A stretch of DNA of 64,000 nucleotides from assembly GCA_964435575.1 (NCBI GenBank), contig CAYSZS010000001.1, positions 43,206 through 107,205 on the forward strand, given 5' to 3'. The notes under the pieces were generated by a model. The model did no database searches, was not told where the DNA came from, and worked only from the letters and a program-made list of their open reading frames with translations. Made by a program: the position numbers and the translations under genes. This DNA is from an uncultured Gammaproteobacteria bacterium. GTDB taxonomy: Bacteria > Patescibacteriota > Microgenomatia > UBA8517. Below, piece by piece: positions 46,778 through 61,832 of the stretch (position 1 is the first letter of the stretch; every line of letters starts with the position of its first letter).

Positions 46778-47551
46778 ATGCAACCATCTATCTATTTATC
46801 AATAATCATTCCTTGTTACAACGAGGAGGAAAATTTGAAAAGAGGCGTTCTTGATGAGGTTTATAAATTCATGAAGGCCAAAGATTTTCAATGGGAGGTA
46901 ATAGTTTCTGATGATGGAAGCACTGACGGGAGTAAAAAGCTGGTAAGGGGGCAGATTGAAGATTGGGACGGATTCAGGCTTTTGGAGAATCCGCATGGAG
47001 GAAAACCCTCTGCTTTGTGGCATGGAATAAAAGAGTCTAAAGGTGAATACGTTCTTTTTACAGACATGGATCAGTCAACTCCAATTGACCAACTTGATAA
47101 ATTGCTTCCTTTTATCGAAAAAAAAGTGGGTGCGGTAATAGGTTCTCGTGGGTTACTTAGGAAAAACTTTCCACTTTATCGTAGATTGGGGTCAATAGTA
47201 TTTATGGCAGTGAGAAAACTGTTTATACTTCCTGAGATAGGTGATACTCAATGCGGTTTTAAATTATTTCAAAGGAAAGTTATTGAAAAGGCATTTCCGA
47301 AGCTACAGTTTTTCAGGAAAGAGGTTATTACTAAGGGATGGAAAGTGACCTCCTACGACGTTGAGTTACTGCATATTATCAAAAAGATGGGATACGAAAT
47401 TGAAGAGGTGCCTGTGGAATGGCAAGATATAGATATTAGTAAAAGCAAAGGGGGTGTGTTGAAAAGGTATATAAATGAGTCGAAAGAAATGTTTACACAA
47501 ATCCTACGGGTCAAATTAAATGATTTGAGAGGTTTATATAAAGATTTTTAG
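46778..47551 (+). CDS. GT2 polyprenyl-phosphate sugar synthase (DPM1-like)
   Basis: SIIIPCYNEEENL, VIVSDDGSTDGS and FTDMDQSTP. Confidence 0.8.
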   Translation: MQPSIYLSIIIPCYNEEENLKRGVLDEVYKFMKAKDFQWEVIVSDDGSTDGSKKLVRGQIEDWDGFRLLENPHGGKPSALWHGIKESKGEYVLFTDMDQSTPIDQLDKLLPFIEKKVGAVIGSRGLLRKNFPLYRRLGSIVFMAVRKLFILPEIGDTQCGFKLFQRKVIEKAFPKLQFFRKEVITKGWKVTSYDVELLHIIKKMGYEIEEVPVEWQDIDISKSKGGVLKRYINESKEMFTQILRVKLNDLRGLYKDF

Positions 47552-47579: not shown

Positions 47580-49187
47580 ATGTCAGAACTTAAAGATGTG
47601 CTCAAAAAAAATAGAGGAACTTTTTTCCTATTTATTGGTATTATTTTATTAGGTCTAATACTTAGACTTTATAACTTAGATTTAATTCCTATTTTTGGTG
47701 ACGAAGCCATTTATATTCGCTGGGCACAAGTAATGAGGGTAGAGCCCGGTCTCCGTTTTGTTCCCTTAAGCGACGGGAAACAGCCTCTTTTTATGTGGCT
47801 AACTATTCCCTTTTTAAAAATCCTTTCAGATCCTTTAGTTGCCGGACGAATGGTGTCAGTATTATCGGGTCTAGGATCCTTAATAGGAGTATATGTACTG
47901 AGTCGAGTATTGTTTAAATCACATAAAGCCTCACTTATCGCAAGTTTATTTTATGCTATTTCTCCTTTTTCGGTTTTTTTTGACAGGATGGCATTAGCTG
48001 ATTCACTTCTCACCATGTTTGGCATATGGACACTAGTTTTCTCTATTATTACCGTACAAAAGATACGATTGGATACCGCTATGCTTGCCGGTTTTTCTTT
48101 GGGTGGTGGGCTCTTAACCAAATCTCCGGCTACTTTTTTTGCGGCCCTCATTCCTTTTACGCTTATCTTATCAGACTGGCCGAAAACATTTAAAAAATGC
48201 TTCAATCGCCTAAGCGTATACGTATTTTTATTTAGCTTTACTTATGCAATAGGTTTTCTTATGTATAACATTTTACGGCTTGGAACTAATTTCCACATGA
48301 TTGCAATTAGAAATAAGGATTACGTTTTTCCTCTTTCGCATATTTTCCAAAACACTCTCGATCCTTCTGTAGGTCATCTAAAGGACACTGTCGACTACTT
48401 TTGGCTTATGGGCCCTTCGGTTCTTGTCTTGTTTATTTTGACGGGAATATATATTGGTTGGAAACTGTTTAGAAGAGAAACAATAATTCTTCTTGCCTGG
48501 GGAATTTTGCCGATATTGGCAGTTGCGGAACTTTCGAAAACAATGACCGCCCGCTATGTATATTTTGCCGTACCGTATCTTTTGATTATTTCTTCTTTGT
48601 CGCTTAGCTTCGCAGTTAAGAAAAAAGTGATGGGTGCCAAGCTAATTCACCCGTCGGGTGGATTCCTATTGTCTCCACTTGTACGGATATTATTTGTAGC
48701 CTTTGTTGTTCATGCTTTTGTATTGGATTATCAACTTTTGACTAACCCACAATCCGCAAACTTGCCCAGAAGCGAGAGGTCTGGTTATTTGGAGGAATGG
48801 ACTTCCGGATATGGAATAAAGGAGGTATCGGAATACTTAAGAGAGCAACCAAAAAACCTGCCTGCCGGCCGGCAGGTTATTGTGGGAACCGAAGGATACT
48901 TTGGAACCTTACCCGATGGCCTTCAGATTTATTTAAACGACGTACAAGGATTAACGGTAGTCGGAGTGGGAATAGATATAAAAGAACTGCCGAAAAGTCT
49001 TATCGAGTCTCGTGATGCAGGAAACAAGACCTACCTAGTTATAAACAATTCACGTCTACTTGCTGATCCCGAGGACTTGAATTTAGAGCTTGTTGCAGTT
49101 TATCCTAAAGCCTTTCGTAAGCCGGGTACCCGGGAGTATAATACTCTCGGCCCCCGCGAATCTCTTTATTTATTTGAAGTTAAATAA
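47580..49187 (+). CDS. ArnT/PMT_2-like GT-C membrane glycosyltransferase
   Basis: The first-loop motif is IFGDEAIYIRWAQVM (the ArnT DExxY motif). There are about 12 TM helices and a C-terminal soluble domain. Confidence 0.75.
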   Translation: MSELKDVLKKNRGTFFLFIGIILLGLILRLYNLDLIPIFGDEAIYIRWAQVMRVEPGLRFVPLSDGKQPLFMWLTIPFLKILSDPLVAGRMVSVLSGLGSLIGVYVLSRVLFKSHKASLIASLFYAISPFSVFFDRMALADSLLTMFGIWTLVFSIITVQKIRLDTAMLAGFSLGGGLLTKSPATFFAALIPFTLILSDWPKTFKKCFNRLSVYVFLFSFTYAIGFLMYNILRLGTNFHMIAIRNKDYVFPLSHIFQNTLDPSVGHLKDTVDYFWLMGPSVLVLFILTGIYIGWKLFRRETIILLAWGILPILAVAELSKTMTARYVYFAVPYLLIISSLSLSFAVKKKVMGAKLIHPSGGFLLSPLVRILFVAFVVHAFVLDYQLLTNPQSANLPRSERSGYLEEWTSGYGIKEVSEYLREQPKNLPAGRQVIVGTEGYFGTLPDGLQIYLNDVQGLTVVGVGIDIKELPKSLIESRDAGNKTYLVINNSRLLADPEDLNLELVAVYPKAFRKPGTREYNTLGPRESLYLFEVK

Positions 49188-49219: not shown

Positions 49220-50236
49220 TTGAAAATGGATAAAGATTTACCCTATTACGAAATAGAAGGTAACTATGAGAAAGTAGGAGGATTTTTAGGTAAAACTTTT
49301 AGAAAAAATATCAAGGAAGCAATTGATAAAAGGAAAAAAGAAATTGTCAATTATGGAACTTATCTTCCGAAGTCCCAGGAATGCTTCGAAATTACAAAAA
49401 AATATTTTCCTAAATTGATTATCGAAACGGAAGCAATTGCAAGAGGAGCAGGAGTGTCGGTAATTGATTATTTCTTTATTAACAACCGTGAAGTGTATGA
49501 TCCCGCTGAAGAACGGGATAAAAAGAATGCAGTAAAGGCAGATCATTGTACTGTGGTTGTAGGTTTTGACGAGAACAAACTAGTTATTGGTCACAATGAA
49601 GATTGGTCATTAGAAGCAATAGATGAGCTTTATATTCTTAAAGCGACGATTAATAAAACCACATTTATTGGTCTTAATTACAATATTACAGTAGCTGGTA
49701 ATTCGGCGTCTATGAATAACTATGGTCTTACACAGTGTATAAATGATATTTATCAAACGAACAAAATAGGAGTACCGAAAAATTATGTTGCAAGAGCGGT
49801 ACTTGAAGCAAGGAATTTAGATGAAGCAGAAAATATGATTCGTTACGTTCAACGAGGGTCGGGATTTAATCATGTACTTGCTCAAGGAACGGAGATAAGA
49901 AATATTGAGATTGCTGGAGATAGAGTCAGTGTTCAGAAAGTTAAGAACAAACCGTACGTTCACACGAATCATTACCTTACAGAAGAACTGAAAGCTTTTG
50001 AGAAATTTCACACTAAAAGTTCTGAAGAGCGTTATAAGCGTGCTAATGAATTATTGAAAAAGAAAATGACGAAGGATACCGTAATAAGTGTTCTTTCCGA
50101 TACGGAAAACAGGGATTATCCTATTTGTAGGGTGGATGAAACTATTGGTTCGGTCGTGTTTATTCCAGATCAATTAGAAGCATATTTTTGTTATGGCCAC
50201 CCTTGTGAAGGAAAATTTAGAAAGTTTAGTCTGTAA
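49220..50236 (+). CDS. Peptidase C45 / acyl-CoA:6-APA acyltransferase-like Ntn-hydrolase (tentative)
   Basis: DHCTVVVGF (a candidate N-terminal nucleophile Cys after self-processing) and GHNEDWS. Family-level resemblance only. Confidence 0.4.
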   Translation: MKMDKDLPYYEIEGNYEKVGGFLGKTFRKNIKEAIDKRKKEIVNYGTYLPKSQECFEITKKYFPKLIIETEAIARGAGVSVIDYFFINNREVYDPAEERDKKNAVKADHCTVVVGFDENKLVIGHNEDWSLEAIDELYILKATINKTTFIGLNYNITVAGNSASMNNYGLTQCINDIYQTNKIGVPKNYVARAVLEARNLDEAENMIRYVQRGSGFNHVLAQGTEIRNIEIAGDRVSVQKVKNKPYVHTNHYLTEELKAFEKFHTKSSEERYKRANELLKKKMTKDTVISVLSDTENRDYPICRVDETIGSVVFIPDQLEAYFCYGHPCEGKFRKFSL

Positions 50237-50288: not shown

Positions 50289-51551
50289 GTGTTAACAAGT
50301 TTAACTAACAAGTGGTGGTTTTGGTGGCTGGTTGTTGGGATTGTTCTTCGGTTAATCTTGATACCGATTACATTTCATCCCGATTTATGGGGACATTCGT
50401 CAGTTGCCTACTTTTTCGCTTACGAAGGAAGACTGAATATTTATGACCACCTTGCAAGTTTATCGACAACTCATCCACTCGTCCGCTCAATGGGAGTAGG
50501 GGATATCTTTATTTATCCTCCTTTAACCTATTTTACTCTGGGAATATTTAGATTCTTGGTTAGGCCATTCGCTGATCCTAATTTTATGCCTATGATTTGG
50601 TCAGAAGTTCCAAAGGCATTGTCCTTTCCTACTCTTCATTGGCATCTTTTTTTATTTAAATTTCCATATCTTTTTATAGATATCGCTATAGCATTTATTT
50701 TCGCCAAATTTTTTGGTCAAGAAAAACGAAAACTTGCTTTTGCCTTGTGGATTATAAACCCATTAACTCTTTACGCAACCTTCATGCTAGGGCAGATTGA
50801 TATATTGCCGACTTTTTTTGTAATTCTTTCTTTATATTTTCTTAAACAAAAAAAATATCGGGCTTCGTTAATAAGTCTTGGAATTGGCGGAGCATATAAA
50901 AGTTTTCCTCTTCTTTTTATTCTTCCGGCAGCCTTTATCTTGGGAAGAACTTTTAAAGAAAAAATTAAATATATTCTTTGGGGTCTTATCCCATATTTCC
51001 TTACGGTTGCTCCTTATTTGGCGTCAAGTACATTTAGACAGATGGTTTTATTCAGCCCGAAATCGACAAAAATGCTTTTTATGGGCTGGAATGTCTCGGG
51101 CGCGGAAGTAATCTTTCCCTTTATAATTCTATTAAGTTTTTTATACCTTCATTCATATTATGCCCAAAATAAGCTCTCAGTTTTCTCGTACGAATTTTTA
51201 ATAATGCTCCTTACCCTTTCCATTACTCATTATCACCCCCAGTGGTTTCTCTGGCTAACGCCCTTTTTGCTAATTTATTTAATTAAATCGAATTTCAAAT
51301 ATTCGTTACTAATAATTTCAATGTTTTTAACGTGGTTAATTATAACTTTATTTTTCGAAGCCTCTCTTTCATACGGACTATTTAGTCCAATATTTCCATC
51401 TCTTTCTCAAGCCACTTCTTTGTCTGATGTGGTCAATAACTACACAAACGTATTTCAGATAAAAAGTGTTGTTAGGAGCTTCTTTGCTGGTGGGAGTATA
51501 TATTTATCCTACCTTTTTTTTAGAAACAACTCAATTGATAAAGATATATGA
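50289..51551 (+). CDS. Polytopic membrane protein, GT-C-like (GT87/DUF2029-like, tentative)
   Basis: More than 10 TM helices. The loop motifs NIYDHL and IYPPLTYF parallel those of 57271. Confidence 0.5.
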   Translation: MLTSLTNKWWFWWLVVGIVLRLILIPITFHPDLWGHSSVAYFFAYEGRLNIYDHLASLSTTHPLVRSMGVGDIFIYPPLTYFTLGIFRFLVRPFADPNFMPMIWSEVPKALSFPTLHWHLFLFKFPYLFIDIAIAFIFAKFFGQEKRKLAFALWIINPLTLYATFMLGQIDILPTFFVILSLYFLKQKKYRASLISLGIGGAYKSFPLLFILPAAFILGRTFKEKIKYILWGLIPYFLTVAPYLASSTFRQMVLFSPKSTKMLFMGWNVSGAEVIFPFIILLSFLYLHSYYAQNKLSVFSYEFLIMLLTLSITHYHPQWFLWLTPFLLIYLIKSNFKYSLLIISMFLTWLIITLFFEASLSYGLFSPIFPSLSQATSLSDVVNNYTNVFQIKSVVRSFFAGGSIYLSYLFFRNNSIDKDI

Positions 51552-52276
51552 AAAAGTTAACTTTAAGCATAGTTATTCCCGCATATAACGAGGAAAAAAT
51601 TATTAAAATGAGCCTTGGGAAAATAATAGATTACCTTAAAGTTAAAAGGTATGATTGGGAGATAGTTGTTGCCGATGACGGCTCCGTGGATAAAACGAAA
51701 GACTTAATCAAAAATTTAACTCATAAAAACAAGAGAATTAAGCTCGTTAGACTTCCTCAAAATAAAGGTAAAGGTGGAGCACTTAAAAAAGGAATCCTGG
51801 CCGCTAAAGGGAAATACATAATTTTTATGGATGCTGATCTCTCAGTGGACTTAGGGAACATTGACATTTTTTTGAAACAACTTAAAAAGGAATCTCCTGT
51901 TGTGATCGCTTCAAGGAGGGTGAAAGGTGCGGAAATTGAGGTTCATCAGCCTTGGCACAGGGAGGTAATGGGGAGAGTTTTTACTTTTTTGACACGTATT
52001 TTGATGCAGGTAAATGTAGCTGATTTCACCTGTGGGTTTAAAGGTTTTACAAACGAAGCCGCAAAAAAAATATTTTCCAAGTCCTTGATTAACCGTTGGG
52101 CCTACGACGCGGAGATAATGTTTCTGTCAAACAAGTTCGGTTATAAGATAAGACAAATGCCGATTGTTTGGAAAAATAGAGGAGATACGAGGGTTAGGCT
52201 AAAAAATGTTATCTTTGAATCTTTTATGGATTTACTAAAGATTAGATTAAACGACTTAAGAGGAGTGTATGACTAA
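51548..52276 (+). CDS. GT2 polyprenyl-phosphate sugar synthase (DPM1-like)
   Basis: SIVIPAYNEEKII, VVADDGSVDKT, NKGKGGALKKG and FMDADLSVD. Confidence 0.85.
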   Translation: MKKLTLSIVIPAYNEEKIIKMSLGKIIDYLKVKRYDWEIVVADDGSVDKTKDLIKNLTHKNKRIKLVRLPQNKGKGGALKKGILAAKGKYIIFMDADLSVDLGNIDIFLKQLKKESPVVIASRRVKGAEIEVHQPWHREVMGRVFTFLTRILMQVNVADFTCGFKGFTNEAAKKIFSKSLINRWAYDAEIMFLSNKFGYKIRQMPIVWKNRGDTRVRLKNVIFESFMDLLKIRLNDLRGVYD

Positions 52277-53957
52277 AATTAAAATTTTTTTTAAAAAGAA
52301 TTTTTTATTTGTTTTACTTCTTATTTTAATTATTCCCACATTCCAGGCCCTAATTCGACCGGGATACTTTCCAATGCACGATGATATGCAGGCAATGCGG
52401 CTCTTGCAGATGGATAAGTGTGTAAAAGACCGGCAGATTCCCTGCAGGTGGGTTCCTGACATGGGGTTTGGATACGGCTATCCTCAATTTAACTACTATG
52501 CACCACTGCCTTATTACATTATGGAAATTATCCATCTTTTAGGATTTGGTTTTTTGGATAGCGTAAAAGCGGGGTTTATTTTGAGCATGATTACGGGTGC
52601 GATGGGAATGTACCTTCTTGGGAGCTCTTTATGGGGAAAAGCGGGAGGATTTATAAGTGCGCTAATTTATACTTATGCACCGTATAGAGCAGTTGACGTT
52701 TTCGTTAGGGGAGCGATGGGGGAGGTTTGGGCTTTTGCCCTTTTGCCTTTTGTATTTTGGTCGGTGGGAAAGGTTTTTAAAGGAAAAAAAATAAGCGTTT
52801 TGTATCTTGCTCTTTCCTTCTCTGCCCTACTTACGTCGCACAATATTAGTGCAATTTTAATAATACCCTTTCTCTTGGCTTGGATTTTACTAATCTCCTT
52901 TCGAAATTTTAAAGAATCCCCGACTCAATTTATGCAAAGAATTTATCGAATTTCGATCGGATTTGTTTGGGGAATAGGTATCGCTTCCTTTTTTATATTA
53001 CCTGCTTGGTTTGAAAAAAACTTGGTTCATGTAGAAACCCTTCTTTCCGGGTATTTTAATTATATAAATCACTTCGTAAGCCTGAATCAGCTCCTTTTCC
53101 AAACTCAATGGGGATATGGAACTTCAGAAGTTGGACCTTATGATGACTTGTTGTTATCGGTAGGGCTAATTCTTTGGGTATTGCCACTTATATCCCTAGT
53201 TCTAAATCTATATTTAAAGAAAAAACCTTCTAGTCTATTTGTTTTTCTATTGATACTTTTTGGATGGTTTAGCCTTTTTATGGCTCATTCAAAGTCCTCT
53301 TTCTTTTGGAATAATATAAAAATTCTTTCATTTGTGCAGTTTCCTTGGAGATTTTTACTTTTTTCGACCTTTTTCTTTTCATTGGCAGCAGGATCTATTG
53401 CTTTGGCCTTCAAAAAGGGTAATAAGTTAGGGGGCGTTTGGATGAGCTTCTTAATTATTTTATTATTTTTTCTGTACAGAAATTATTTCATACCGCGAAT
53501 TTGGATAAATACTACGGATCAGGAAAAATTTTCCGGTGAATCCTGGCAAAGACAACAGACAATAAGCATTTTTGACTACTTGCCAGTTTATGCAAAAATG
53601 CCGCCTGCCGCCAAAGCTTCTGACGAACCTGTTTTTATAAGTGGTGAGGGCGATATAAAAAGTGGCCAGGGAGGTTCAAATTGGCAGAATTGGGAGGTGG
53701 AAGTTTTGACAGAAAAGGCAACTTTACAATTTGGAATATTTTATTTTCCTCTGTGGACTGTGCGGGTGGGCGATAAATTAATTCCGATTAACTACGACGA
53801 CGATCTTGGGGCAATAAAAGTAGATTTAAATAGGGGTGGACAGAAAGTTATGCTAAGACTTACTAACACCCCCGTTAGGAGTTTTTCAAACATTGTAACA
53901 TTGGTATCTATATTTTTTATTCCAATCTTTTTAAGAAAGAAGGAACTGATTAAATGA
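52269..53957 (+). CDS. GT-C-like membrane glycosyltransferase, tandem paralog 1 of 3
   Basis: Shares MHDDMQAMRLLQMDKCVKDRQIPCRWVPDMGFGYGYPQFNYY with the next two genes. It has about 12 TM helices and a C-terminal domain containing FPLWTVRV ... LTNTPVR. Confidence 0.65.
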   Translation: MTKIKIFFKKNFLFVLLLILIIPTFQALIRPGYFPMHDDMQAMRLLQMDKCVKDRQIPCRWVPDMGFGYGYPQFNYYAPLPYYIMEIIHLLGFGFLDSVKAGFILSMITGAMGMYLLGSSLWGKAGGFISALIYTYAPYRAVDVFVRGAMGEVWAFALLPFVFWSVGKVFKGKKISVLYLALSFSALLTSHNISAILIIPFLLAWILLISFRNFKESPTQFMQRIYRISIGFVWGIGIASFFILPAWFEKNLVHVETLLSGYFNYINHFVSLNQLLFQTQWGYGTSEVGPYDDLLLSVGLILWVLPLISLVLNLYLKKKPSSLFVFLLILFGWFSLFMAHSKSSFFWNNIKILSFVQFPWRFLLFSTFFFSLAAGSIALAFKKGNKLGGVWMSFLIILLFFLYRNYFIPRIWINTTDQEKFSGESWQRQQTISIFDYLPVYAKMPPAAKASDEPVFISGEGDIKSGQGGSNWQNWEVEVLTEKATLQFGIFYFPLWTVRVGDKLIPINYDDDLGAIKVDLNRGGQKVMLRLTNTPVRSFSNIVTLVSIFFIPIFLRKKELIK

Positions 53958-55627
53958 TAAGAAAAATTTATCCCTTTATTATTATTTTTATTATATGTAT
54001 TCCTGCTAGTTGGTATCTTTTTGGAAGGGGATATTTCAATATGCATGATGATCTTCAGGTAATGAGAGTTTACGAGATGGAGAGGTGTTTTAGTGACGGC
54101 CAAATCCCCTGTCGGTGGTCGCCCGATATGGCATATGGATATGGTCAGGCCATGTTTAATTATTATTCCGCATTCCCCTATTACCTTGGTCAATTTGTGA
54201 GAATGGTTACTGGTTTAAGTATTCTGGCGACCGTAAAGACCCTTTTTTTTATTTCTTTAGTTGGATCCGCATTTGGGATGTACATATTGGCAAAAGAGTT
54301 TTGGGGAAAAATGGGTGGAATTTTAGCATCTGCCCTATACATTTATACTCCCTACCACGCTCTTGATATTTTTGTCAGAGGCGCGCTTTCCGAGAGCTTC
54401 TCTCTTGCAATATTACCCTTTCTTTGGTTTTACCTTTACACCCTAGTTAAAAATCCATCGGTTAAAAGTGCGTTGTTGACGTCTATCTCCCTATTCTTTC
54501 TTCTGACCACCCACAATATTTCAAGCATGATTTACGCGCCGTTTACGCTCATCTGGACGACATTTTGGATAATCTATCTCAAAAATTGGAAAAGCATAAA
54601 GTATGTTTTTATTTCAGGAATATTGGGAGTGGGTTTATCAAGTTTTTTCCTTATTCCCGCCATTTTTGAACAATCGCTAATCAATGTACAATATCTGACT
54701 TCTGAATATTCGGACTTCCATGCGCACTTCGTTTCATTAAAGCAGTTATTCGTTGAAAGAAAGTGGGGATACGGACCCTCAATTTTTGGACCATACGATG
54801 ATCTGTCTTTTCAGGTCGGCTGGCCGCATTGGTTTTTAGGATTTTTAGTAATAGGACTTTCTATTTATTGGTGGGTTAAAAAAAGAAACAAAGAAGCAAT
54901 TCTAAGTATTTCACTAATTTCACTATTTTTGTTGACGACCTTTTTGGCACATCAGAGATCTTTATTTCTTTGGGAATCACTCCCACTTATCAAATTTGTC
55001 CAATTTCCGTGGAGGTTTTTAGGTCTTTCTATGTTTTTCTTGTCATTTGCATTAGGAGCGATGGGAAATGTGCGGTTTACCTTAAAGACTTTATTCGTAT
55101 ATCTGATTCTTGGTATTACAATAGTTCTTAATATTAGCTACTTCAAGCCCTTTAATTTTTCAAGAAAAGTTAAAGACGAAGATAAATTGATGGGAGAAGC
55201 CTGGGAATTACAACAGAAAGCGGCAATTCTCGACTACCTGCCAAAAACTGCCGATATTGCACCCCCAGCATCTGCGTTCGATACACCTAAAGTTATTTCA
55301 GGCGAAGGGGTAATAGAAAACTTTACAAACGATTCCAATAGATTTAGTTTTGACGCCGATATTTTCTCGCTCTCAGAAGTGGTAGTTCCCGTCATGTATT
55401 TTCCGAACTGGATAGTGATTGTTGATAATCAAAAGGTAACAAGCGGGATTAATGGTGCCCATGGAGTCATAAGCCTAGAACTCCCCGTAGGTAAACATAT
55501 CGTTCGAGGTAGGTTTACGAATACTTTAGTAAGGACAGTCGCTAATTCAGTCTCGGTTCTATCTTTAATAATACTTTTTTCTGTTTCAGCAGTCTCTGAG
55601 AACAAAAAGTATGATGAAAAGAAATAA
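53954..55627 (+). CDS. GT-C-like membrane glycosyltransferase, tandem paralog 2 of 3
   Basis: The motifs are MHDDLQVMRVYEMERCFSDGQIPCRWSPDMAYGYGQAMFNYY, FPNWIVIV and FTNTLVR. Confidence 0.65.
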   Translation: MIRKIYPFIIIFIICIPASWYLFGRGYFNMHDDLQVMRVYEMERCFSDGQIPCRWSPDMAYGYGQAMFNYYSAFPYYLGQFVRMVTGLSILATVKTLFFISLVGSAFGMYILAKEFWGKMGGILASALYIYTPYHALDIFVRGALSESFSLAILPFLWFYLYTLVKNPSVKSALLTSISLFFLLTTHNISSMIYAPFTLIWTTFWIIYLKNWKSIKYVFISGILGVGLSSFFLIPAIFEQSLINVQYLTSEYSDFHAHFVSLKQLFVERKWGYGPSIFGPYDDLSFQVGWPHWFLGFLVIGLSIYWWVKKRNKEAILSISLISLFLLTTFLAHQRSLFLWESLPLIKFVQFPWRFLGLSMFFLSFALGAMGNVRFTLKTLFVYLILGITIVLNISYFKPFNFSRKVKDEDKLMGEAWELQQKAAILDYLPKTADIAPPASAFDTPKVISGEGVIENFTNDSNRFSFDADIFSLSEVVVPVMYFPNWIVIVDNQKVTSGINGAHGVISLELPVGKHIVRGRFTNTLVRTVANSVSVLSLIILFSVSAVSENKKYDEKK

Positions 55628-57299
55628 ATTTGTTTATCTATTACTGACACTTTTGCTAATACCAGCAGCTTTTTTCCTTTTAATTCCAGGGTTTTACGAA
55701 CCTCATGACCTCCACCATTTTGCAGATATTTACGAAATGTATCGGGCAATTTCTTCAGGTCAAATTCCACCTCGGTTAGGACCTGATTTTATTTTCGGCT
55801 ATGGATATCCCCTTTTTAATTTTTATTATGTTTTGCCTTTTTATATAGGAAGTTTTTTTTATGCTGTTTTGGGAAGTTTGCAAATTAGTTTCAAATTAGT
55901 TTTTGTTGCAAGCATAATTTTATCAGTTTTTGGAATGTTTTTTTTCCTGAGAGAGTTTTTCGGGAAGTGGGCCGCATTTACCGGATCCGTTTTATTTTTA
56001 TATACTCCCTATCGCGCAGTCCAAATATATGTACGAGGAGCGATGGGGGAGGCACTTGCATTATCTCTTTTACCTTTTGTTTTGTGGTCGGCGGTTCGAT
56101 TGATCAAACAACCCGGAAAGCGAGTTTTGGTTGCGATCTTGTCATTTATCTCGGCCCTTTTTATACTTTCACACAATTATTTTTGGGTAATCAGCCTTCC
56201 TTTCATTCTTGTTTTGCTTACTTTATTGATTGATAAAGAGAATTTGGCCCTTACTATTCGTTCTCTATTAACAACTTTTCTTCTTTCTATAGGTTTAACC
56301 TCCTATTGGTGGTTACCAGCTTTAATAGAACAAGGTACGGTTTCTTCGACCACCCCTTTTCCACTAATTGATCATTTCCCTTTCATCAAACAGTTAATAA
56401 TCCCTTCTTGGGGATATGGAAGTTCAGTTTGGGGATCGGGAGATGGAATGTCGTTCCAGGTAGGCGTCATTAACTGGTTTGTGTTTTTAATTCTTATTGG
56501 GATGATTTTGTTTAAAAGACTTGTAAGTAATAAACAAATTTCAAAACTTGCTATCTGGTCGATTACGGGTTTTTTAGTAAGTCTTTTTATGATGAATATT
56601 CGCTCCTACCCCTTATGGAAAATTCTGCCGTTTCATGACTTTATTCAGTTTCCTTGGAGACTTTTATTTTTGACAACGCTTTTTACAAGTGTAATGGCAG
56701 CGGTTAGCGTTGAAGTGTTAAATAAGCGTGGAAAATATTTAGCATCGACTATAATACTAGGAAGCTTACTTTTGACTTTTCATTATTTTCAACCGAGTAA
56801 AATATTTTATCATACAGATGATGATTATTTATCAAGGTTCTTTGCAAACCGTACAACTCAAGGGGAAAAACGTGAGGTTTCTAAAGAATATTTGAATTAC
56901 AGCGAAGACTACCTCCTTTTACCCAAATGGGTTGACCAACGACCGAGAAGCTTACCTCATCAAAAAATAGAATCCGACGTAATTAGTGTTTTCGATATCG
57001 AGGAAATTACTCCAGTGAAGTGGGTTGTCTTTGTTGAGACAAAGGAAAATTCGAAAGTTACTTTTAATTCTTTATATTTTCCCGGATGGTTTGCAAAAAT
57101 TGACGGTAATCCTACTCTGATAACATTAGAGAAACCGCTCGGACTGATAGAAACACAGGTTCCATTAGGTAAGCATGAAATTTCTTTCTATTGGGCGGAA
57201 ACCCCATTGCGGAAAATGGCAGATCTCATAAGTTTATTTTCGTTAGGAATAAACGGGTTTTTATTTTGGAATGAAAAAAAAGAGCACAACCGAAAATAG
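55611..57299 (+). CDS. GT-C-like membrane glycosyltransferase, tandem paralog 3 of 3 (more diverged)
   Basis: A degenerate N-terminal motif (HDLHHFADIYEMYRAISSGQIPPRLGPDFIFGYGYPLFNFYY) without the Cys pair. It has the same TM architecture and C-terminal segment (FPGWFAKIDG). Confidence 0.6.
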   Translation: MMKRNKFVYLLLTLLLIPAAFFLLIPGFYEPHDLHHFADIYEMYRAISSGQIPPRLGPDFIFGYGYPLFNFYYVLPFYIGSFFYAVLGSLQISFKLVFVASIILSVFGMFFFLREFFGKWAAFTGSVLFLYTPYRAVQIYVRGAMGEALALSLLPFVLWSAVRLIKQPGKRVLVAILSFISALFILSHNYFWVISLPFILVLLTLLIDKENLALTIRSLLTTFLLSIGLTSYWWLPALIEQGTVSSTTPFPLIDHFPFIKQLIIPSWGYGSSVWGSGDGMSFQVGVINWFVFLILIGMILFKRLVSNKQISKLAIWSITGFLVSLFMMNIRSYPLWKILPFHDFIQFPWRLLFLTTLFTSVMAAVSVEVLNKRGKYLASTIILGSLLLTFHYFQPSKIFYHTDDDYLSRFFANRTTQGEKREVSKEYLNYSEDYLLLPKWVDQRPRSLPHQKIESDVISVFDIEEITPVKWVVFVETKENSKVTFNSLYFPGWFAKIDGNPTLITLEKPLGLIETQVPLGKHEISFYWAETPLRKMADLISLFSLGINGFLFWNEKKEHNRK

Positions 57300-58608
57300 T
57301 TTAGTTGATATAGTACTAAGAAATCGAAGGAGAATTTTTCTGGTGGCCCTCCTTCTTATCGGATTTTTTATAAGATTTTACTATGCAGATAAATTCGTTA
57401 AGGAAAGTGGCGACCTACGACTTTATGCGGATTGGGGAGAGAAATTCTGGGAATATGGATCAAAAAATTTTTATTTCGTAAAAGAATGGTATTACGCACC
57501 CCCGAATTATCCGCCGATACTTTCGCTTATCTATGCAGGATCCTATTGGTTATTTGACCATAAATACGTTTTGGCACAAATTCATAATGCGACACGCTTA
57601 GTTCCGGCTGTTTTCATTATCTACTTTTACGATCACGGTTATTATCTCCTTCTTAAATTACCCGGGATTATGGCTGATTTGGGATTGGCATATTTAATAT
57701 ATAAAGTTGTTTTTGAGTTAACAAAGAATACAAAACGTTCGCTTATCGCTTTTTCTTTTTATCTATTTAATCCTATCTCTATTTTTTTGAGCGGAGCATG
57801 GGGGCAAACAGACAGTTTGGTATCGCTTTTTGGAATACTTTCATTTTTAGTTCTTTTTTCGAGGTATATCTGGCTTTCAATCCCTCTTTTATTTATCAGT
57901 TTTTATATAAAACCAAATTGGGGGTTATTTATTCCACTGTATTTATTTATTCTGTTTGGTAAAAAACCCAAATTTAAATATGTAGGATTCGGAATTATAA
58001 TGTCGGTTATAATTTTTATAGTTACTACACTTCCTTTTAGTCAAGGAAGTGTTTTATCTTTTTCTAAATATTTACTGGAATCCAGGATTTTGCCAACCGC
58101 CAGCATTACACACAAAGCATCGGTTTCCGCTTTCAATTTCCATACAATTTTTTTTGAAATAGATAGGACTTCGGATGAAGAACCTGTTTTGGGAATTCCT
58201 GCGAATATTTTCGGGATAATAATTTTTATCTTAGTTAATGTTGTTTCCTTTTGGTACTCGAGGAAACAAAAATACAACATTAAATCGCTAATGGTTGCAC
58301 TTTTTTTAATCGGATTTTCAGGGTACCTTTTTTTGACAAATATGTTAGAGAGGTATTTTTTCGCAGGCTTCGTTCCTCTGATTATTATTGGTTTTACCAA
58401 TACCAGGTTATTAGTTTATCTATTACTTATCAACCTGGCAACTTTTTTAAACCTGGTTTATGCGTTTTTTCGTCGATCGGTCGGTGAAATTGCAGACCTT
58501 TTCACTGAAAATGATTTCTTGGCTATAAGGGTGCTATCAACCCTTAATTTGTTTGGCTTTGTTATTTTGTTGAAAAAATTCAATCCGATTTCTTTCAAGA
58601 AAAGTTAA
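57271..58608 (+). CDS. Polytopic membrane protein, GT-C-like (GT87/DUF2029-like, tentative)
   Basis: About 11 TM helices. The first loop carries LRLYADWGEKFWEY ... YYAPPNYPP. Confidence 0.5.
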   Translation: MKKKSTTENSLVDIVLRNRRRIFLVALLLIGFFIRFYYADKFVKESGDLRLYADWGEKFWEYGSKNFYFVKEWYYAPPNYPPILSLIYAGSYWLFDHKYVLAQIHNATRLVPAVFIIYFYDHGYYLLLKLPGIMADLGLAYLIYKVVFELTKNTKRSLIAFSFYLFNPISIFLSGAWGQTDSLVSLFGILSFLVLFSRYIWLSIPLLFISFYIKPNWGLFIPLYLFILFGKKPKFKYVGFGIIMSVIIFIVTTLPFSQGSVLSFSKYLLESRILPTASITHKASVSAFNFHTIFFEIDRTSDEEPVLGIPANIFGIIIFILVNVVSFWYSRKQKYNIKSLMVALFLIGFSGYLFLTNMLERYFFAGFVPLIIIGFTNTRLLVYLLLINLATFLNLVYAFFRRSVGEIADLFTENDFLAIRVLSTLNLFGFVILLKKFNPISFKKS

Positions 58609-58624
58609 GTGATAAAATTTTAAA

Positions 58625-60121
58625 ATGTCTGATATAACAAAAACACAGGACCATTTGGATCCCACCGGCGAAATTAGTTTGGAAGCGGTAAAATCGAGGG
58701 CGGTTAAAGGTGTTGTTGTTTTAACGGGTCGGACCTTTATCCTTCAAATAGTATCATTTTCCGCCTGGTTTTTTCTTTCGGTCTTTTTAGATGCCCGGGA
58801 AATCGGGGTTTTCTTTATAGTATCTGCAGTAGTAAATTTCCTGCGCTATTTTTCCGACATCGGTTTGGCCGCTGCCTTAATTCAAAAAAAGGAGAAAGTT
58901 GACGAAGCCGATCTTAAAACAACCTTCACTATCCAGCAGGGGCTGGTAATACTGCTTTTGCTGTTTTTATATATTTCGGCTCCTTTTTTCCAGCGATATT
59001 ATTCATTGAGCTATGAGGGATTACTGCTTTTTTATGCGCTGGGCGTATCTTTTCTTTTTTCATCTTTAAAAACCATTCCCTCGGTTTTATTGGAACGCGA
59101 GCTGAAGTTCGGGAAATTGGTTATTCCCGATGTTTTGGAGAACCTTGTTTACAATTTAACCGCGGTATATTTCGCCTGGCAGGGAATGGGGATAACAAGC
59201 TTTACTTATGCAGTATTGCTGCGCGGTATAGTCGGGTTAATCGCGATTTATATAATTCGTCCCTGGCTTCCCGGACTGGCCTTCGCCGGAAAATCTTTGA
59301 GAAAACTTTTGACTTTCGGAGTTCCGTACCAACTGAATACTTTTTTGGCGACAGTAAAAGACGACGGAATGACGGCATTTTTGGGAGGAATTCTCGGAGC
59401 AACCGGTATTGGCTATCTCGGCTGGGCGCAAAAATGGGCGCAGACGCCTCTCCGGCTATTTTTGGATAATGTTACAAAAGTCACCTTTCCGGCATTTTCA
59501 CGCATGCAGGACGATAAAAAACATCTCGAAAGCAGTGTCACAAGATCAATATATTTTGTTGCCTTTTTAGTTTTTCCGTCGATTGTCAGCCTTTTGGTTT
59601 TGGCACCCGTTTTGGTAGAAATAATTCCAAGGTATGATAAATGGCAGCCGGCGCTTCTACCTTTGGCACTGGTCAGCGTCAATGTGATTATGGCTGTTTC
59701 AACGACCCAGATTACCAATCTATTCAACGCGATAGGTAAAATTAAAATAACTTTTAAACTGATGTTAATGTGGACGATTCTCACCTGGTTATTTGTTCCC
59801 TTTTTCGGATTAAGATTCGGTGTCAATGGCGCGGCATTCGGCTATGCTCTCGTAGGCGCGAGTTCGGTGATTGCGATTTATATCGGGAAAAGACATGTCA
59901 ACTTTTCTCTTAAATACAGCTTGCTGAATCCGGCAATCGCTTCGGTTATTATGGCCATTGTAATGCTTTTGGTAAGAAATATATTGCCTGTTAATATTTT
60001 CGGACTTTCGTTAATCGCTTTGGTCGGTCTTGCAGCCTATTTTGCGGCATCTTTTGCAATTGTCGGCAGGTCTCTTCTGGAAGATGGTAAAAAATCTCTT
60101 TCAACTCTTTTCAGTCGCTAA
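58625..60121 (+). CDS. Wzx-like oligosaccharide/polysaccharide flippase (MOP superfamily)
   Basis: About 12-14 TM helices. The N-terminal architecture is typical of polysaccharide biosynthesis proteins (charged residues in TM1/TM2). It sits in a GT island. Confidence 0.7.
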   Translation: MSDITKTQDHLDPTGEISLEAVKSRAVKGVVVLTGRTFILQIVSFSAWFFLSVFLDAREIGVFFIVSAVVNFLRYFSDIGLAAALIQKKEKVDEADLKTTFTIQQGLVILLLLFLYISAPFFQRYYSLSYEGLLLFYALGVSFLFSSLKTIPSVLLERELKFGKLVIPDVLENLVYNLTAVYFAWQGMGITSFTYAVLLRGIVGLIAIYIIRPWLPGLAFAGKSLRKLLTFGVPYQLNTFLATVKDDGMTAFLGGILGATGIGYLGWAQKWAQTPLRLFLDNVTKVTFPAFSRMQDDKKHLESSVTRSIYFVAFLVFPSIVSLLVLAPVLVEIIPRYDKWQPALLPLALVSVNVIMAVSTTQITNLFNAIGKIKITFKLMLMWTILTWLFVPFFGLRFGVNGAAFGYALVGASSVIAIYIGKRHVNFSLKYSLLNPAIASVIMAIVMLLVRNILPVNIFGLSLIALVGLAAYFAASFAIVGRSLLEDGKKSLSTLFSR

Positions 60122-60179
60122 GATAAATAGAGCAGGCCGGTTTTTGATTTTAGCCGGTTCGCTGGTCTGGTCTTTGACT

Positions 60180-61832
60180 ATGGTAAAAAGTGGATTGGTT
60201 TACAATTATGGAATGGGATTTTGGGGTCCGAACGGACATGACGGAATTTGGCACATAAGTTTGGCAAATTCATTAGCAAGAGGATTGTGGCAGATGCCGA
60301 TTTTCGCGGGAGAAACTATTAAGAACTATCACATAGGATTTGATTTGGTACTTGCCATACTTCATAAACTGACTTTTATTCCAATTCATACTTTGTATTT
60401 TCAAATACTTCCCCCAATCTTTGCATTCTTAATTGGCTTATTTGCTTATTTGTTTACTCTGTCTTGGAAAAATTCCACGAAATCGGCTTTTTGGGCGACT
60501 TTTTTTGTGTATTTCGGTGGAAACTGGGGTTGGCTAGTAACTTTAATAAGAGGGAAAGAGTTGGGTGGAGAGAGTCTGTTTTGGTCACAACAGGCAATAT
60601 CGACGCTTATCAACCCACCCTTCGCCCTGTCACTTATCTTGATATTTTCCGGATTGTGGGTACTTGTAAAAGGACTACAGACTAAAGATAAAAGACTTTT
60701 TATTATTGCTACATTTTTATTCGGAGTTTTGGTGCAGGTCAAGGTTTATGCTGGAATTTTGGTTTTAGCAGGACTTTTTATGGCGGGATTTTGGAGAATG
60801 GTTAAAAAGCAGGGAATTGACTTAATCAAAGTTTTTACAGGTTCCTTGCTAATTTCTTTTTTGATTTTTTCTCCGTTAATAGGAAGCGTTGGGCAAACGG
60901 TAATTTTTCAGCCCTTTTGGTTTTTGGAAAGCATAGTTTCTTCACCTGACCGCTTTTATTGGCCAAAAATGGCAAGCGCAATTGCAAACTATAAATTGGC
61001 GGGAAATTGGCCAAGATTAATTCTTGCCTATGGAGTGACATTTGCTATTTTTTGGTTTGGAAACTTGGGTACAAGAATTTTAAAAGAGCCGCTGTTTTTT
61101 GTACACCTTAAAAATCTCAAGAAACTTTCATTCATTGAAGTATTTTTGTATAGCATTATAGGGCTAGGGGTTTTACTTCCGACTCTATTTATCCAAAAAG
61201 GAAATTCCTGGAACACAATTCAATTTATGTATTATTCTTTGGTGTTTTCTGGAATTCTAGCTGGGGTTTGTTTGGGAAAGTATTTAGATAAAAATGCGGA
61301 CGAGAAGCACAGCACTATGATACATCATAGTAAGCGAGTGGGTCTAATTTTATTAATAATAGCGATGACGGTACCAACTAGCGTTGGGACTTTGAAACAC
61401 TACTTACCCCAAAGACCTCCAGCGATGATTTCAAATCAAGAACTTGAAGCACTTGATTTTCTTGCAAATCAGCCAGATGGAACTGTCCTAACTCAGCCTT
61501 TTGGCAGAGAAAAAGCCCTTGCAGCTCAATCAAATCCGCCAAGACCTCTTTACCTTTACGAGTCAACTGCCTATGTTTCGGCTTTTTCCGGGAAACAGAC
61601 GTATTTGGAAGATGAAGTTAACTTAGAAATAACGGGATATGACTGGAGAAAAAGGAGAAAAGAAGTTGAACCATTTTTTGGCGAGAACTGTAAAATAGAC
61701 GTAAATTTCTTTACTGACAAAGAGGTCTCATATATTTATTTAGTAAAGCAAAATTTATGTAAAAGGGAATTTGAGACAATTGCAGATAAAATATTTGAAA
61801 ATCTGGAGGTTGTGGTATTTAAGGTTAATTAG
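60180..61832 (+). CDS. Large polytopic membrane protein with a C-terminal soluble domain (GT-C-like or polymerase/ligase-like)
   Basis: The ORF is open from 60030 but overlaps wzx up to 60121. The start is probably the TTG near 60148 or the ATG at 60180. There is a GPNGHDGIWHISLANS periplasmic motif, more than 10 TM helices and a roughly 180-aa C-terminal domain. Confidence 0.5.
   Translation: MVKSGLVYNYGMGFWGPNGHDGIWHISLANSLARGLWQMPIFAGETIKNYHIGFDLVLAILHKLTFIPIHTLYFQILPPIFAFLIGLFAYLFTLSWKNSTKSAFWATFFVYFGGNWGWLVTLIRGKELGGESLFWSQQAISTLINPPFALSLILIFSGLWVLVKGLQTKDKRLFIIATFLFGVLVQVKVYAGILVLAGLFMAGFWRMVKKQGIDLIKVFTGSLLISFLIFSPLIGSVGQTVIFQPFWFLESIVSSPDRFYWPKMASAIANYKLAGNWPRLILAYGVTFAIFWFGNLGTRILKEPLFFVHLKNLKKLSFIEVFLYSIIGLGVLLPTLFIQKGNSWNTIQFMYYSLVFSGILAGVCLGKYLDKNADEKHSTMIHHSKRVGLILLIIAMTVPTSVGTLKHYLPQRPPAMISNQELEALDFLANQPDGTVLTQPFGREKALAAQSNPPRPLYLYESTAYVSAFSGKQTYLEDEVNLEITGYDWRKRRKEVEPFFGENCKIDVNFFTDKEVSYIYLVKQNLCKREFETIADKIFENLEVVVFKVN

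Follow-up and report, generated by a model that had tools for sequence, protein, structure and literature searches.

More than 40 kb of the window, which is the whole 64,000-nucleotide stretch of DNA analyzed here, is given to glycan synthesis, and within it three related membrane-protein genes stand in series. What do these genes encode, and why are there three of them? The source genome is that of a Candidatus Woesebacteria member (Microgenomates, CPR). CPR bacteria, including Woesebacteria, are uncultured, have tiny genomes, rely on hosts or partners, and possess a cell envelope that is poorly understood. We regard it as quite probable that the genes encode three non-redundant extracytoplasmic glycosyltransferases of the PF10131 family, which use polyprenyl-phosphate sugars. 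They represent an ordinary kind of enzyme from an uncharacterized family, most likely engaged in the glycosylation of a cell-surface glycan outside the membrane.

Three co-directional overlapping open reading frames were located on the + strand, exactly at the coordinates given in the first-pass annotation. These are copy 1 (c1; 52269..53957, 562 aa), copy 2 (c2; 53954..55627, 557 aa), and copy 3 (c3; 55611..57299, 562 aa). The first two overlap by 4 nt (ATGA) and the last two by 17 nt, and a GAGGAG Shine-Dalgarno sequence lies just 5' of the c1 ATG. Pairwise protein comparison gave identities of 38% for c1/c2 (E 2e-120), 30% for c1/c3 (E 1e-63), and 31% for c2/c3 (E 2e-79). The reading frames and E-values thus agree with the initial description of three tandem overlapping paralogous genes starting at 52269, 53954, and 55611; the copies are paralogous far beyond chance.

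Membership of the Pfam family PF10131 (PTPS_related) was defined by a score at or above the gathering cut-off of 26.4 bits, which was exceeded by c1 (30.4 bits), c2 (41.0 bits), and c3 (41.1 bits). These modest scores of 30–41 bits arise from an alignment spanning model positions 1 to approximately 200–320 of 621, outside which fall both the first extracytoplasmic loop (EL1), containing the Asp and Cys pair described below, and a C-terminal β-sandwich. The same model was matched by 68 of 75 homologues at E of 0.01 or better, and approximately 22,700 clusters at 50% identity match it at E of 1e-3 or better. The first-pass annotation had found no named family and suggested a YfhO-type resemblance. 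PF10131 supplies the missing name, and YfhO (PF09586) proved to be a clan-level relative: it was matched by only 7 of the 75 homologues, each time with a stronger score for PF10131, and had no match among c1, c2, and c3 at E ≤0.1. Public records name some close homologues “6-pyruvoyl-tetrahydropterin synthase-related protein”, and the family name is a misnomer. In 2021 PF10131 was placed in the GT-C clan CL0111, with its function listed as unknown (PMC7801869). Our literature search returned a sole paper on the family and no characterized member, for which reason we infer activity, donor, and acceptor alike.

The GT-C-like character proposed at first reading is borne out by the Pfam clan and fold searches together, so that the family found is one of related function. 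AF2 models of c1 (pLDDT 95.8, pTM 0.94) and c3 (pLDDT 93.6, pTM 0.93) were obtained, which provide experimenters with a confident structural model. Foldseek matches to them at E <1e-3 were exclusively GT-C enzymes; at the sequence level, the copies had no PDB match. The modeled structures belong to the GT-C fold of clan CL0111, with the multi-span membrane core present. Each protein is predicted to have approximately 11 transmembrane (TM) helices and two long outward loops, EL1 between TM1 and TM2 and EL4 between TM7 and TM8. In c1, the extracytoplasmic β-sandwich (53631..53861, + strand; residues 455–531) is followed by a final TM helix (residues 535–561). The N-terminus is rich in K/R, the short inner loops contain KGKK, LKK, and FKKGN, and the C-terminus reads RKKELIK. 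This charge pattern fits a topology in which the N-terminus is cytoplasmic and the final TM helix brings the C-terminus back to the cytoplasm, with the conserved polar residues all outside. Profile alignment with the PMT_2-type GT-C of the window covered TM2–TM7 only, at a probability of 37%, and the comparison of HDD with GDE lies outside that span.

The catalytic Asp of GT-C enzymes sits in the first extracytoplasmic loop just past TM1, and the first Asp of a DD/DE motif in EL1 is shared by all GT-C enzymes found in that study (PMC7801869). The motif recognized in the first-pass annotation is located there, right after TM1. In c1 it spans 52362..52517 (+ strand; residues 32–83, GYFPMHDDMQAMRLLQMDKCVKDRQIPCRWVPDMGFGYGYPQFNYYAPLPYY), with codons for Asp38 at 52380-52382, Cys51 at 52419-52421, and Cys59 at 52443-52445. 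In c2 it spans 54029-54184 (+ strand), with Asp32 at 54047-54049, Cys45 at 54086-54088, and Cys53 at 54110-54112. Both carry HDD(M/L)Q(A/V)MR, D(R/G)QIPCRW(V/S)PDM, GYG, FNYY, FP(L/N)W, and TNT(P/L)VR as first quoted, except for one letter of the reported EM(D/E)(K/R)C, since c1 reads QMDKC instead of EMDKC. The corresponding loop of c3 (55689-55844, + strand; GFYEPHDLHHFADIYEMYRAISSGQIPPRLGPDFIFGYGYPLFNFYYVLPFY) has Asp33 at 55707-55709 and holds Ala46 and Pro54 at the Cys-pair positions. This confirms the reported loss of both Cys residues, but not that of HDD, which reads HDL; the His and first Asp are kept and the second Asp alone is altered. Likewise, the supposed invariance of Asp-Asp holds nearly throughout for the first residue, whereas the second position is Asp, Glu, Leu, Asn, or others in Cys-less copies. 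Asp38, approximately 9 residues past TM1, is near-invariant across the family, being present in 100% of 354 orthologues and 139 of 142 diverse representatives. The motif is kept in hundreds of homologues and is not lineage-specific noise. Other near-invariant residues (copy 1 numbering) are Arg60, Asp64, Arg147, Glu152, His191, Glu249, His268, and Arg361, which together with Asp38 offer experimenters a set of candidate catalytic residues. Arg361 was found in 136 of 142 representatives and directly precedes the helix 359–380; it closes the universally conserved QFPWR motif (53337..53351, + strand; residues 357–361), directly ahead of TM10. An Arg before TM10 binds the donor phosphate and is common to the GT-C enzymes found (PMC7801869). 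By analogy with this residue in STT3, AglB, and PglB, Arg361 is a candidate ligand for the donor phosphate.

The cysteines total two in c1 (51 and 59), the pair plus one in TM1 in c2, and none in c3. Among all homologues counted, 194 have both residues of the pair, 97 have neither, and 0 have a single one; the corresponding numbers were 115 both and 34 neither in the loci, and 79 both and 63 neither among representatives with <50% mutual identity (n = 142). Such both-or-none behavior resembles that of a coupled pair and fits the loop disulfide considered at the outset. The i/i+8 pair of c1 and c2 probably staples EL1 through a disulfide bond; alternatively, it could bind a metal. In GT-C enzymes, EL1 helps to form both substrate sites. 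EL1 of c3 is remodeled as a block, in a lineage that swapped the Cys pair for Ala/Pro. Every universal polar residue is kept, so c3 looks catalytically competent, and the three copies probably catalyze different steps, distinguished by linkage or acceptor.

The surrounding genes follow a conserved order: GT2, PMT_2-type GT-C, one to four PF10131 genes, Wzx-type flippase, a membrane protein without family, GT2, and GT2. In the window, all on the + strand, Pfam assigned the upstream module to a GT2 (46778-47551) and a PMT_2/ArnT-like GT-C (47580-49187). In 48 of 70 loci this pair lies no more than 6 kb upstream of the PF10131 block, and in 41 of 70 a PMT_2-type gene directly precedes the block. 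Synteny places a GT87-family GT-C between the PMT_2 gene and the block in the present lineage (50289..51551, 420 aa; Pfam GT87, 25.8 bits, cut-off 25). It is followed by a GT2 resembling the polyprenyl-phosphate-sugar synthase type (51548..52276, 242 aa; Pfam Glycos_transf_2, 9.3e-37), which overlaps c1 by 8 nt. This GT2 aligned over nearly its full length only with the Dol-P-Man synthase 5mlz (residues 4–226, E 1.2e-16), PgfS, PpgS, ArnC, and Dol-P-hexose transferase, all below equivalog cut-offs. In 54 of 70 loci a GT2 of this type lies upstream at a distance of up to 6 kb; in 5 of 70, which are close relatives, it directly precedes c1. Six divergent members of the family are GT2–PF10131 fusion proteins, of which five have a GT2 domain resembling the GT2 at 62866 and not the polyprenyl-phosphate-sugar synthase type. 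The infrequent adjacency and the GT2 type of these fusions suggest that the link to the donor is at the pathway level and not specific. Downstream of c3 lies a multi-TM protein without Cys or family match (57271..58608; public start approximately 57343, 421 aa), which gave a sub-threshold VKOR match only and has orthologues in only a few loci. Next are a MOP/Wzx-type flippase (58625..60121, 498 aa; Pfam Polysacc_synt_3, 1.4e-49; NCBIfam MOP flippase, 124.7 bits, below cut-off) and a conserved membrane protein of approximately 590 aa (60030..61832), for which Pfam, PDB, and profile searches returned no match. The flippase is directly downstream of the block in 41 of 59 loci, and both genes are downstream in 47 of 59. 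No GtrA-domain gene adjoins the three copies; the sole GtrA domain in the window belongs to a GT2–GtrA fusion (36937-38151) located 15 kb upstream of them.

These neighbors suggest a pathway along the general scheme of GT-A enzyme, flippase, and GT-C enzyme (PMC8035078). A small cytoplasmic GT2 of the cluster would load a sugar onto polyprenyl phosphate, and the lipid-linked sugar would then be flipped across the membrane, on whose outer face each paralogue would move it to an acceptor. Where EL1 begins, the invariant Asp (Asp38 of c1) may serve as the catalytic or acceptor-activating residue, with Arg361 of QFPWR gripping the donor phosphate ahead of TM10. Against this scheme, Wzx-type flippases move Und-PP-oligosaccharides, not Pren-P-monosaccharides. 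The likely acceptor would be a cell-surface glycan assembled on a lipid carrier, which the neighboring Wzx-type flippase would export and which would be completed outside the membrane. Alternatively, the copies may be protein glycosyltransferases, PMT- or OST-like, which act on Ser/Thr or Asn of surface or secreted proteins such as pilins or the S-layer and differ in substrate or add successive sugars, rather than extending a glycopolymer. We consider this reading unlikely, though the foremost among the rivals.

Another reading makes the copies subunits of a single obligate hetero-oligomeric GT-C complex, comparable to Pmt1–Pmt2 or EmbA–EmbB, with Cys-less c3 as a specialized or regulatory subunit rather than an enzyme in its own right. 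Of 80 Microgenomates loci, 23 have the order c1-c2-c3, and they span Woese-, Davies-, Collierbacteria, and others; together with the overlapping frames, this fixed order suggests co-translation in a fixed proportion. Cys-less copies never occur alone, the Cys form being the one present in all 42 loci with a single copy, and public proteins with at least two family copies in one chain exist (P0361 and P0362), although miscalled genes or frameshifts where frames overlap could have produced these. However, some genomes depart from the order (c1-c3-c2, c2-c1, or four copies), the single-copy genomes show the Cys form to work by itself, and c3 looks competent. Such a complex is hence rather improbable. 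Slightly more doubtful still is a broader proposal, in which the Cys-stapled and Cys-less paralogues make up a fixed assembly line, or a hetero-oligomer, that builds a Microgenomates-specific surface glycopolymer outside the cytoplasm, with a redox-sensitive EL1 disulfide and a Cys-less copy taking a redox-independent or differently specific step. If true, it would give PF10131, and part of the CPR cell envelope, a first functional role. It is very improbable that these GT-C-fold proteins are not glycosyltransferases and act instead as a glycan polymerase, ligase, or scaffold, comparable to PIG-U/GAB1, which has the fold without transferase activity.

Besides the recurring c1-c2-c3 order, several observations favor the non-redundancy of the three copies. 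At least 120 orthologues were found for each of them, at 47–76% identity; those of c3, at 50–71%, share their own tightly conserved motif, and the c3 class is monophyletic (25/25). Substitution rates were evaluated against the orthologues of locus L001 and gave dN/dS of 0.10 (c1), 0.08 (c2), and 0.11 (c3), values that are approximate because dS (1.9–2.8) is near saturation. All three copies are under purifying selection, c3 like c1 and c2. Rather than being recent, the duplication is old and has been kept in synteny. The earlier suggestion that c3 is a decaying or redundant duplicate, to which the loss of the Cys pair and of the second HDD Asp and a slightly higher orthologue patristic divergence (1.18 versus 0.97 and 1.06) might point, is effectively refuted by its intact frame of 562 aa, its own subfamily motif, its retention of all 53 universally conserved positions, its low dN/dS, and its confident model with GT-C fold matches. 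Cys-pair and Cys-less paralogues adjoining in a conserved operon constitute a clean natural experiment. Knowledge of GT-C enzymes at large is unchanged: in this superfamily, series of paralogues are commonplace, and so are disulfides in loops.

Among known systems, CsbB/GtcA/YfhO (lipoteichoic acid), GtrA/GtrB/Gtr-type (O-antigen), and ArnC/ArnT have a small polyprenyl-phosphate-sugar synthase-type GT2, which the GT2 at 51548 resembles, and likewise a multi-span GT-C that bears an acidic motif in one of its extracytoplasmic loops (scheme of PMC8035078). Unlike these systems, the present locus contains three serial paralogous GT-C genes instead of one and no adjoining GtrA/GtcA-type flippase, and its cluster contains a Wzx-type flippase and several more GT-C genes, which points to the assembly of a glycan rather than to one decorating step. 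Pmt1/2/4, STT3/AglB/PglB, AftD, AftA, ArnT, and ALG12 have the same transmembrane core, long EL1 and EL4, Asp at the EL1 start, and an Arg before TM10 to which Arg361 may correspond. Identity to these solved enzymes is only 8–15% with no single closest one, and the PF10131 copies differ in having a small β-sandwich as the soluble domain and, after it, one more TM helix at the C-terminus. The luminal ALG3/9/12 and ALG6/8/10 of eukaryotic N-glycan assembly and the mycobacterial EmbA/B/C are series of paralogous GT-Cs, each responsible for a single step on a lipid-linked glycan that has been flipped; the Pren-P or Dol-P sugars that they use come from a GT2. Their likeness to the present copies is one of analogy only; the PF10131 paralogues arose independently and stand in tandem in one operon.

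The three open reading frames of the triplet, c1 (52269–53957, 562 aa), c2 (53954–55627, 557 aa) and c3 (55611–57299, 562 aa), were located on the + strand with exactly the coordinates and lengths of the first-pass annotation, and the motifs it quoted were found in c1 and c2. The start of c1 is preceded by a GAGGAG Shine-Dalgarno sequence and overlaps the upstream GT2 gene (51548–52276) by 8 nt, the c1/c2 junction is an ATGA with a 4-nt overlap, and c2 and c3 overlap by 17 nt. Pairwise comparison gave 38% identity for c1/c2 (E 2e-120), 30% for c1/c3 (E 1e-63) and 31% for c2/c3 (E 2e-79); judged by sequence, the three are clear paralogues. The c1 protein matches "hypothetical protein A2865_03330" of Candidatus Woesebacteria bacterium RIFCSPHIGHO2_01_FULL_39_17 at 100% identity, and the c1–c3 locus was present in many separate assemblies across ENA, JGI and NCBI data. 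All three proteins scored above the Pfam gathering cut-off (26.4 bits) of PF10131 (PTPS_related), with 30.4, 41.0 and 41.1 bits for c1, c2 and c3, so that they do belong to a named family, which the first-pass annotation had been unable to give. A Pfam scan of 75 homologues detected PF10131 in 68, PMT_2 in 15 and YfhO in only 7 of them. The family is a large one, for which, out of 1.84 billion cluster representatives searched with a profile, 22,729 were matched at E ≤ 1e-3 and 8,258 at E ≤ 1e-30. It is a member of the GT-C clan CL0111 and is listed as "function unknown" (PMC7801869); a literature search on PF10131, PTPS_related and the long name returned that paper and otherwise incidental Clostridium mentions, and one combining CPR with GT-C found nothing. 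An NCBIfam scan of c1–c3 gave no match, there being no NCBIfam model for the family, and a search of PDB sequences with a three-copy profile gave chance matches only (E > 0.2), with no solved structure detectable. Structure models were obtained for c1 (mean pLDDT 95.8, pTM 0.94) and c3 (mean pLDDT 93.6, pTM 0.93), and their Foldseek matches in the PDB at E < 1e-3 were exclusively GT-C enzymes (STT3, AglB, AftD, AftA and ArnT), which bears out the GT-C fold suggested earlier. The helix pattern and Lys/Arg distribution would fit an N-in/C-in topology, in which the long loops EL1 (residues 30–94, c1 numbering throughout) and EL4 (239–299) and a β-sandwich (455–531), followed by the final TM helix, are predicted to face outward.

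For each copy at least 120 orthologues with 47–76% identity were found, and conservation within each lineage was evaluated on a 354-sequence alignment of c1, c2 and c3 orthologues. Asp38 in EL1 was conserved in 100%, 99% and 100% of the c1, c2 and c3 lineages, respectively. The adjacent Asp39 was found in 100% of the c1 and 99% of the c2 lineage, and is replaced by Leu in 100% of the close c3 orthologues. The HDD motif formerly taken as lost from c3 is an HDL that retains the His and the first Asp, as against HDD in the others; position 39 of more distant c3-type proteins is mostly Asp or Glu, so the Leu is a local change in the clade of the window. The c3 lineage has a tight motif of its own, GFYEP(H/Q/S)DLHHxADIYxM...SGQxPPRxGPDFxFGYGYPLFNFYY. 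The three lineages share 53 positions, including D38, Q56, P58, R60, D64, R147, E152, H191, N192, E249, H268, D292, QFPWR at 357–361, D417 and D436. The loop motif also held among homologues at large, as had been proposed for a check: in a diverse set of 142 domains from representatives with less than 50% mutual identity, Asp38 was present in 139, R60 in 141, R147, E152 and H191 in 139 each, and R361 in 136. For all the GT-C enzymes that it found, PMC7801869 describes two shared residues, the first Asp of the DD/DE motif in EL1 and, in front of TM10, an Arg to which the donor phosphate is bound. As far as the alignments tell, Asp38 and Arg361 fit these two positions, and the loop Asp thus keeps its earlier standing as a candidate catalytic residue. 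A profile alignment to the PMT_2-type GT-C of the window (HDD versus GDE) covered only TM2–TM7 with a probability of 37%, leaving EL1 outside.

The Cys residues follow an all-or-none pattern. The c1 protein has exactly 2 Cys among its 562 residues (51 and 59), c2 has the pair and one more in TM1, and c3 has none, both being replaced (Ala46 and Pro54, c3 numbering). Cys51 and Cys59 were each conserved in 100% of the c1 and c2 lineages, while the c3 lineage has Ala (94%) and Pro (98%) there. The pair, spaced i, i+8 where the EL1 helix ends, was complete in 115 and wholly absent in 34 copies of the related loci, as tallied by hmmalign column extraction, and complete in 79 and absent in 63 domains of the diverse set, with a single Cys in none of either. 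The coupling noted for two copies extends to every sequence of both sets, and such perfect co-occurrence is the pattern expected of a disulfide, though the two residues may instead be a metal-binding pair.

The age of the triplet was examined in a locus survey with one genome per GTDB species, in which more than 500 relatives were found and the best 80 loci analysed, almost all of them from Microgenomates (Woese-, Davies-, Ames-, Collier-, Shapiro- and Blackburnbacteria). The order c1-c2-c3 was observed in 23 of these 80, four of them with an extra c1-type copy, and c1-c3-c2 and c2-c1 were rarer. Single-copy loci (42/80) were all of the Cys-Cys type and nearly all HDD; Cys-less copies, consisting of the c3 "Ala-Pro" class and a smaller "Ala-Val" clade, were seen only next to a Cys-containing copy. 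From these patterns we infer as the simplest history an ancestral single gene with HDD and the Cys pair that underwent old duplications, EL1 being remodelled in one of the lineages. Among the Cys-less copies, between which the midpoint root lies, clean monophyly was seen for the c3 class alone. Many MAG records with the cluster (L002, L003, L005–L007 and other loci) bear the titles "uncultured Gammaproteobacteria bacterium" or "Pseudomonadales", which look like placeholder or wrong taxonomy in view of their gene content and similarity to Woesebacteria and Daviesbacteria loci. Public gene calls also include chains with two to several PF10131 copies (P0361, P0362, P0364 of 3329 aa, and P0375, listed together with P0405 and P0504), and PF10131 + PMT/PMT_2 fusions are among these; either tandem genes may truly be fused in them, or they may be gene-calling artefacts that stem from overlapping frames, from frameshifts or from use of the wrong genetic code.

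The triplet lies in a glycan-synthesis region spanning 19.8–64 kb of the window, in which a tRNA scan detected no tRNA. This region begins with a GT2/GT4 fusion (19866), a GT4 (22547), a PIG-L deacetylase (23749), a GNAT acetyltransferase (24552), a GT2-GtrA fusion (36937) and a GT2 followed by a GT-C (39639, then 40337). These are followed by a tandem PMT_2-like GT-C pair (43651–45207 and 45204–46697), a GT2 and a PMT_2-type GT-C (46778, then 47580), an AAT/peptidase C45-type gene (49220–50236; Pfam PF03417, E 1.1e-34), a GT87 (50289) and the GT2 at 51548. Beyond c3 there are a membrane protein (57271–58608), a MOP/Wzx flippase (58625), an unknown membrane protein of ~590 aa (60030–61832) and two GT2 genes (61869 and 62866). 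Synteny was counted across the best 80 loci, with denominators of 70 upstream and 59 downstream, and revealed a conserved core. Directly upstream of the PF10131 block a PMT_2-type gene was found in 41/70 loci, and a GT2 + PMT_2 pair within 6 kb in 48/70; directly downstream the MOP flippase was found in 41/59, and MOP plus the unknown membrane protein were located downstream in 47/59. For the GT2 at 51548, the sole near-full-length matches were to polyprenyl-phosphate-sugar synthases (DPMS 5mlz, residues 4–226; PgfS, PpgS, ArnC and Dol-P-hexose transferase), all below equivalog cut-offs, and its orthologue directly precedes c1 in 5/70 loci, close relatives only. Six mutually divergent GT2-PF10131 fusions of ~820–830 aa were observed in public metagenomes (P0363, P0367, P0383, P0391, P0428 and P0052), in which the cytoplasmic GT2 domain joins straight to TM1 of the PF10131 domain. 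Among their GT2 domains, five are similar to the 62866 type and one to the 46778/51548 type, in support of a shared pathway though not of a specific donor.

The GT-C pair at 43651 and 45204 is likewise paralogous (24% identity, E 1e-21, 4-nt overlap), each member having a first-loop (Y/H)DQ motif, and as a second such pair makes tandem GT-C duplication a recurring theme of the locus; the ORFs at 25592 and 27283, considered as a further pair, were unrelated to each other. The AAT/C45-type gene sits between the PMT_2-type and GT87 genes within the glycan cluster, and had no counterpart in the 80 related loci, so that it appears to be a lineage-specific insertion. The 57271 protein, directly after c3, is multi-TM and Cys-free, has no family match, and has orthologues only in a few of the related loci; in public gene calls its start is at ~57343, and its apparent 29-nt overlap with c3 is thus possibly not real. 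Its assignment as a VKOR, which would suit the disulfide, was rejected, the match lying below threshold (15 bits) and the 57271 protein containing no Cys. The 60030 protein (575 aa from ~60104 in public gene calls) is also multi-TM, follows the Wzx-type flippase in those 47/59 Microgenomates loci, and shows very strong conservation of the motifs GFWGPNGHDGVWH (after TM1), GGESxFWSQQxISTLxNPP, WNTIQFxYY and PPRPLYLYESTAYVSAFS. It had no match in Pfam, PDB sequences or to the PF10131 profile, some orthologues have an additional N-terminal domain of ~550 aa, and the protein is a candidate for the polymerase, the ligase or another transferase of the same glycan. In a sister assembly whose c3 is identical to that of the window (L083; GCA_000993305.1, LBVW01000004.1, 10015–13041), flippase and membrane protein form one 1008-aa call, which points to a differing frame where the two overlap or to an artefact of assembly or gene calling there.

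When the scheme of multi-component systems for transmembrane glycosylation (PMC8035078) is adopted, a polyprenyl-phosphate sugar would be made by a cytoplasmic GT2 and flipped to the other side of the membrane, where each PF10131 enzyme would move the sugar onto an outside acceptor via the EL1 Asp. This acceptor would most likely be a glycan that the neighbouring Wzx flippase exports; that c1–c3 glycosylate proteins instead is rather unlikely, that they work only as an obligate hetero-oligomer is more doubtful still, and a role other than transfer is improbable. Least credible is decay of c3 after duplication, one of two readings in the first-pass annotation: the c3 class formed a monophyletic group (25/25) when 146 family members were placed in a neighbour-joining tree, its orthologue divergence (1.18) only slightly exceeds that of c1 (0.97) and c2 (1.06), its dN/dS against the closest orthologous locus (L001) is ~0.11 beside ~0.10 for c1 and ~0.08 for c2 (rough values, as dS of 1.9–2.8 is near saturation), every universal residue is kept, and it models confidently. 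Orthologues were used here because dN/dS among c1–c3 themselves, as formerly proposed, is meaningless at 30–38% identity. The initial interpretation thus stands for the GT-C fold, the loop Asp and the coupled Cys, but not for the missing family, the lost HDD and the decay. The c1–c3 proteins are of an enzyme kind already known, in a family catalogued yet unstudied, and would be a useful way into CPR envelope biology while being no surprise to a specialist. That the three paralogues are each conserved in their own right, c3 with a remodelled EL1, suggests that c1, c2 and c3 perform three different steps, to which the ALG3/9/12 and ALG6/8/10 series or EmbA/B/C offer an analogy.
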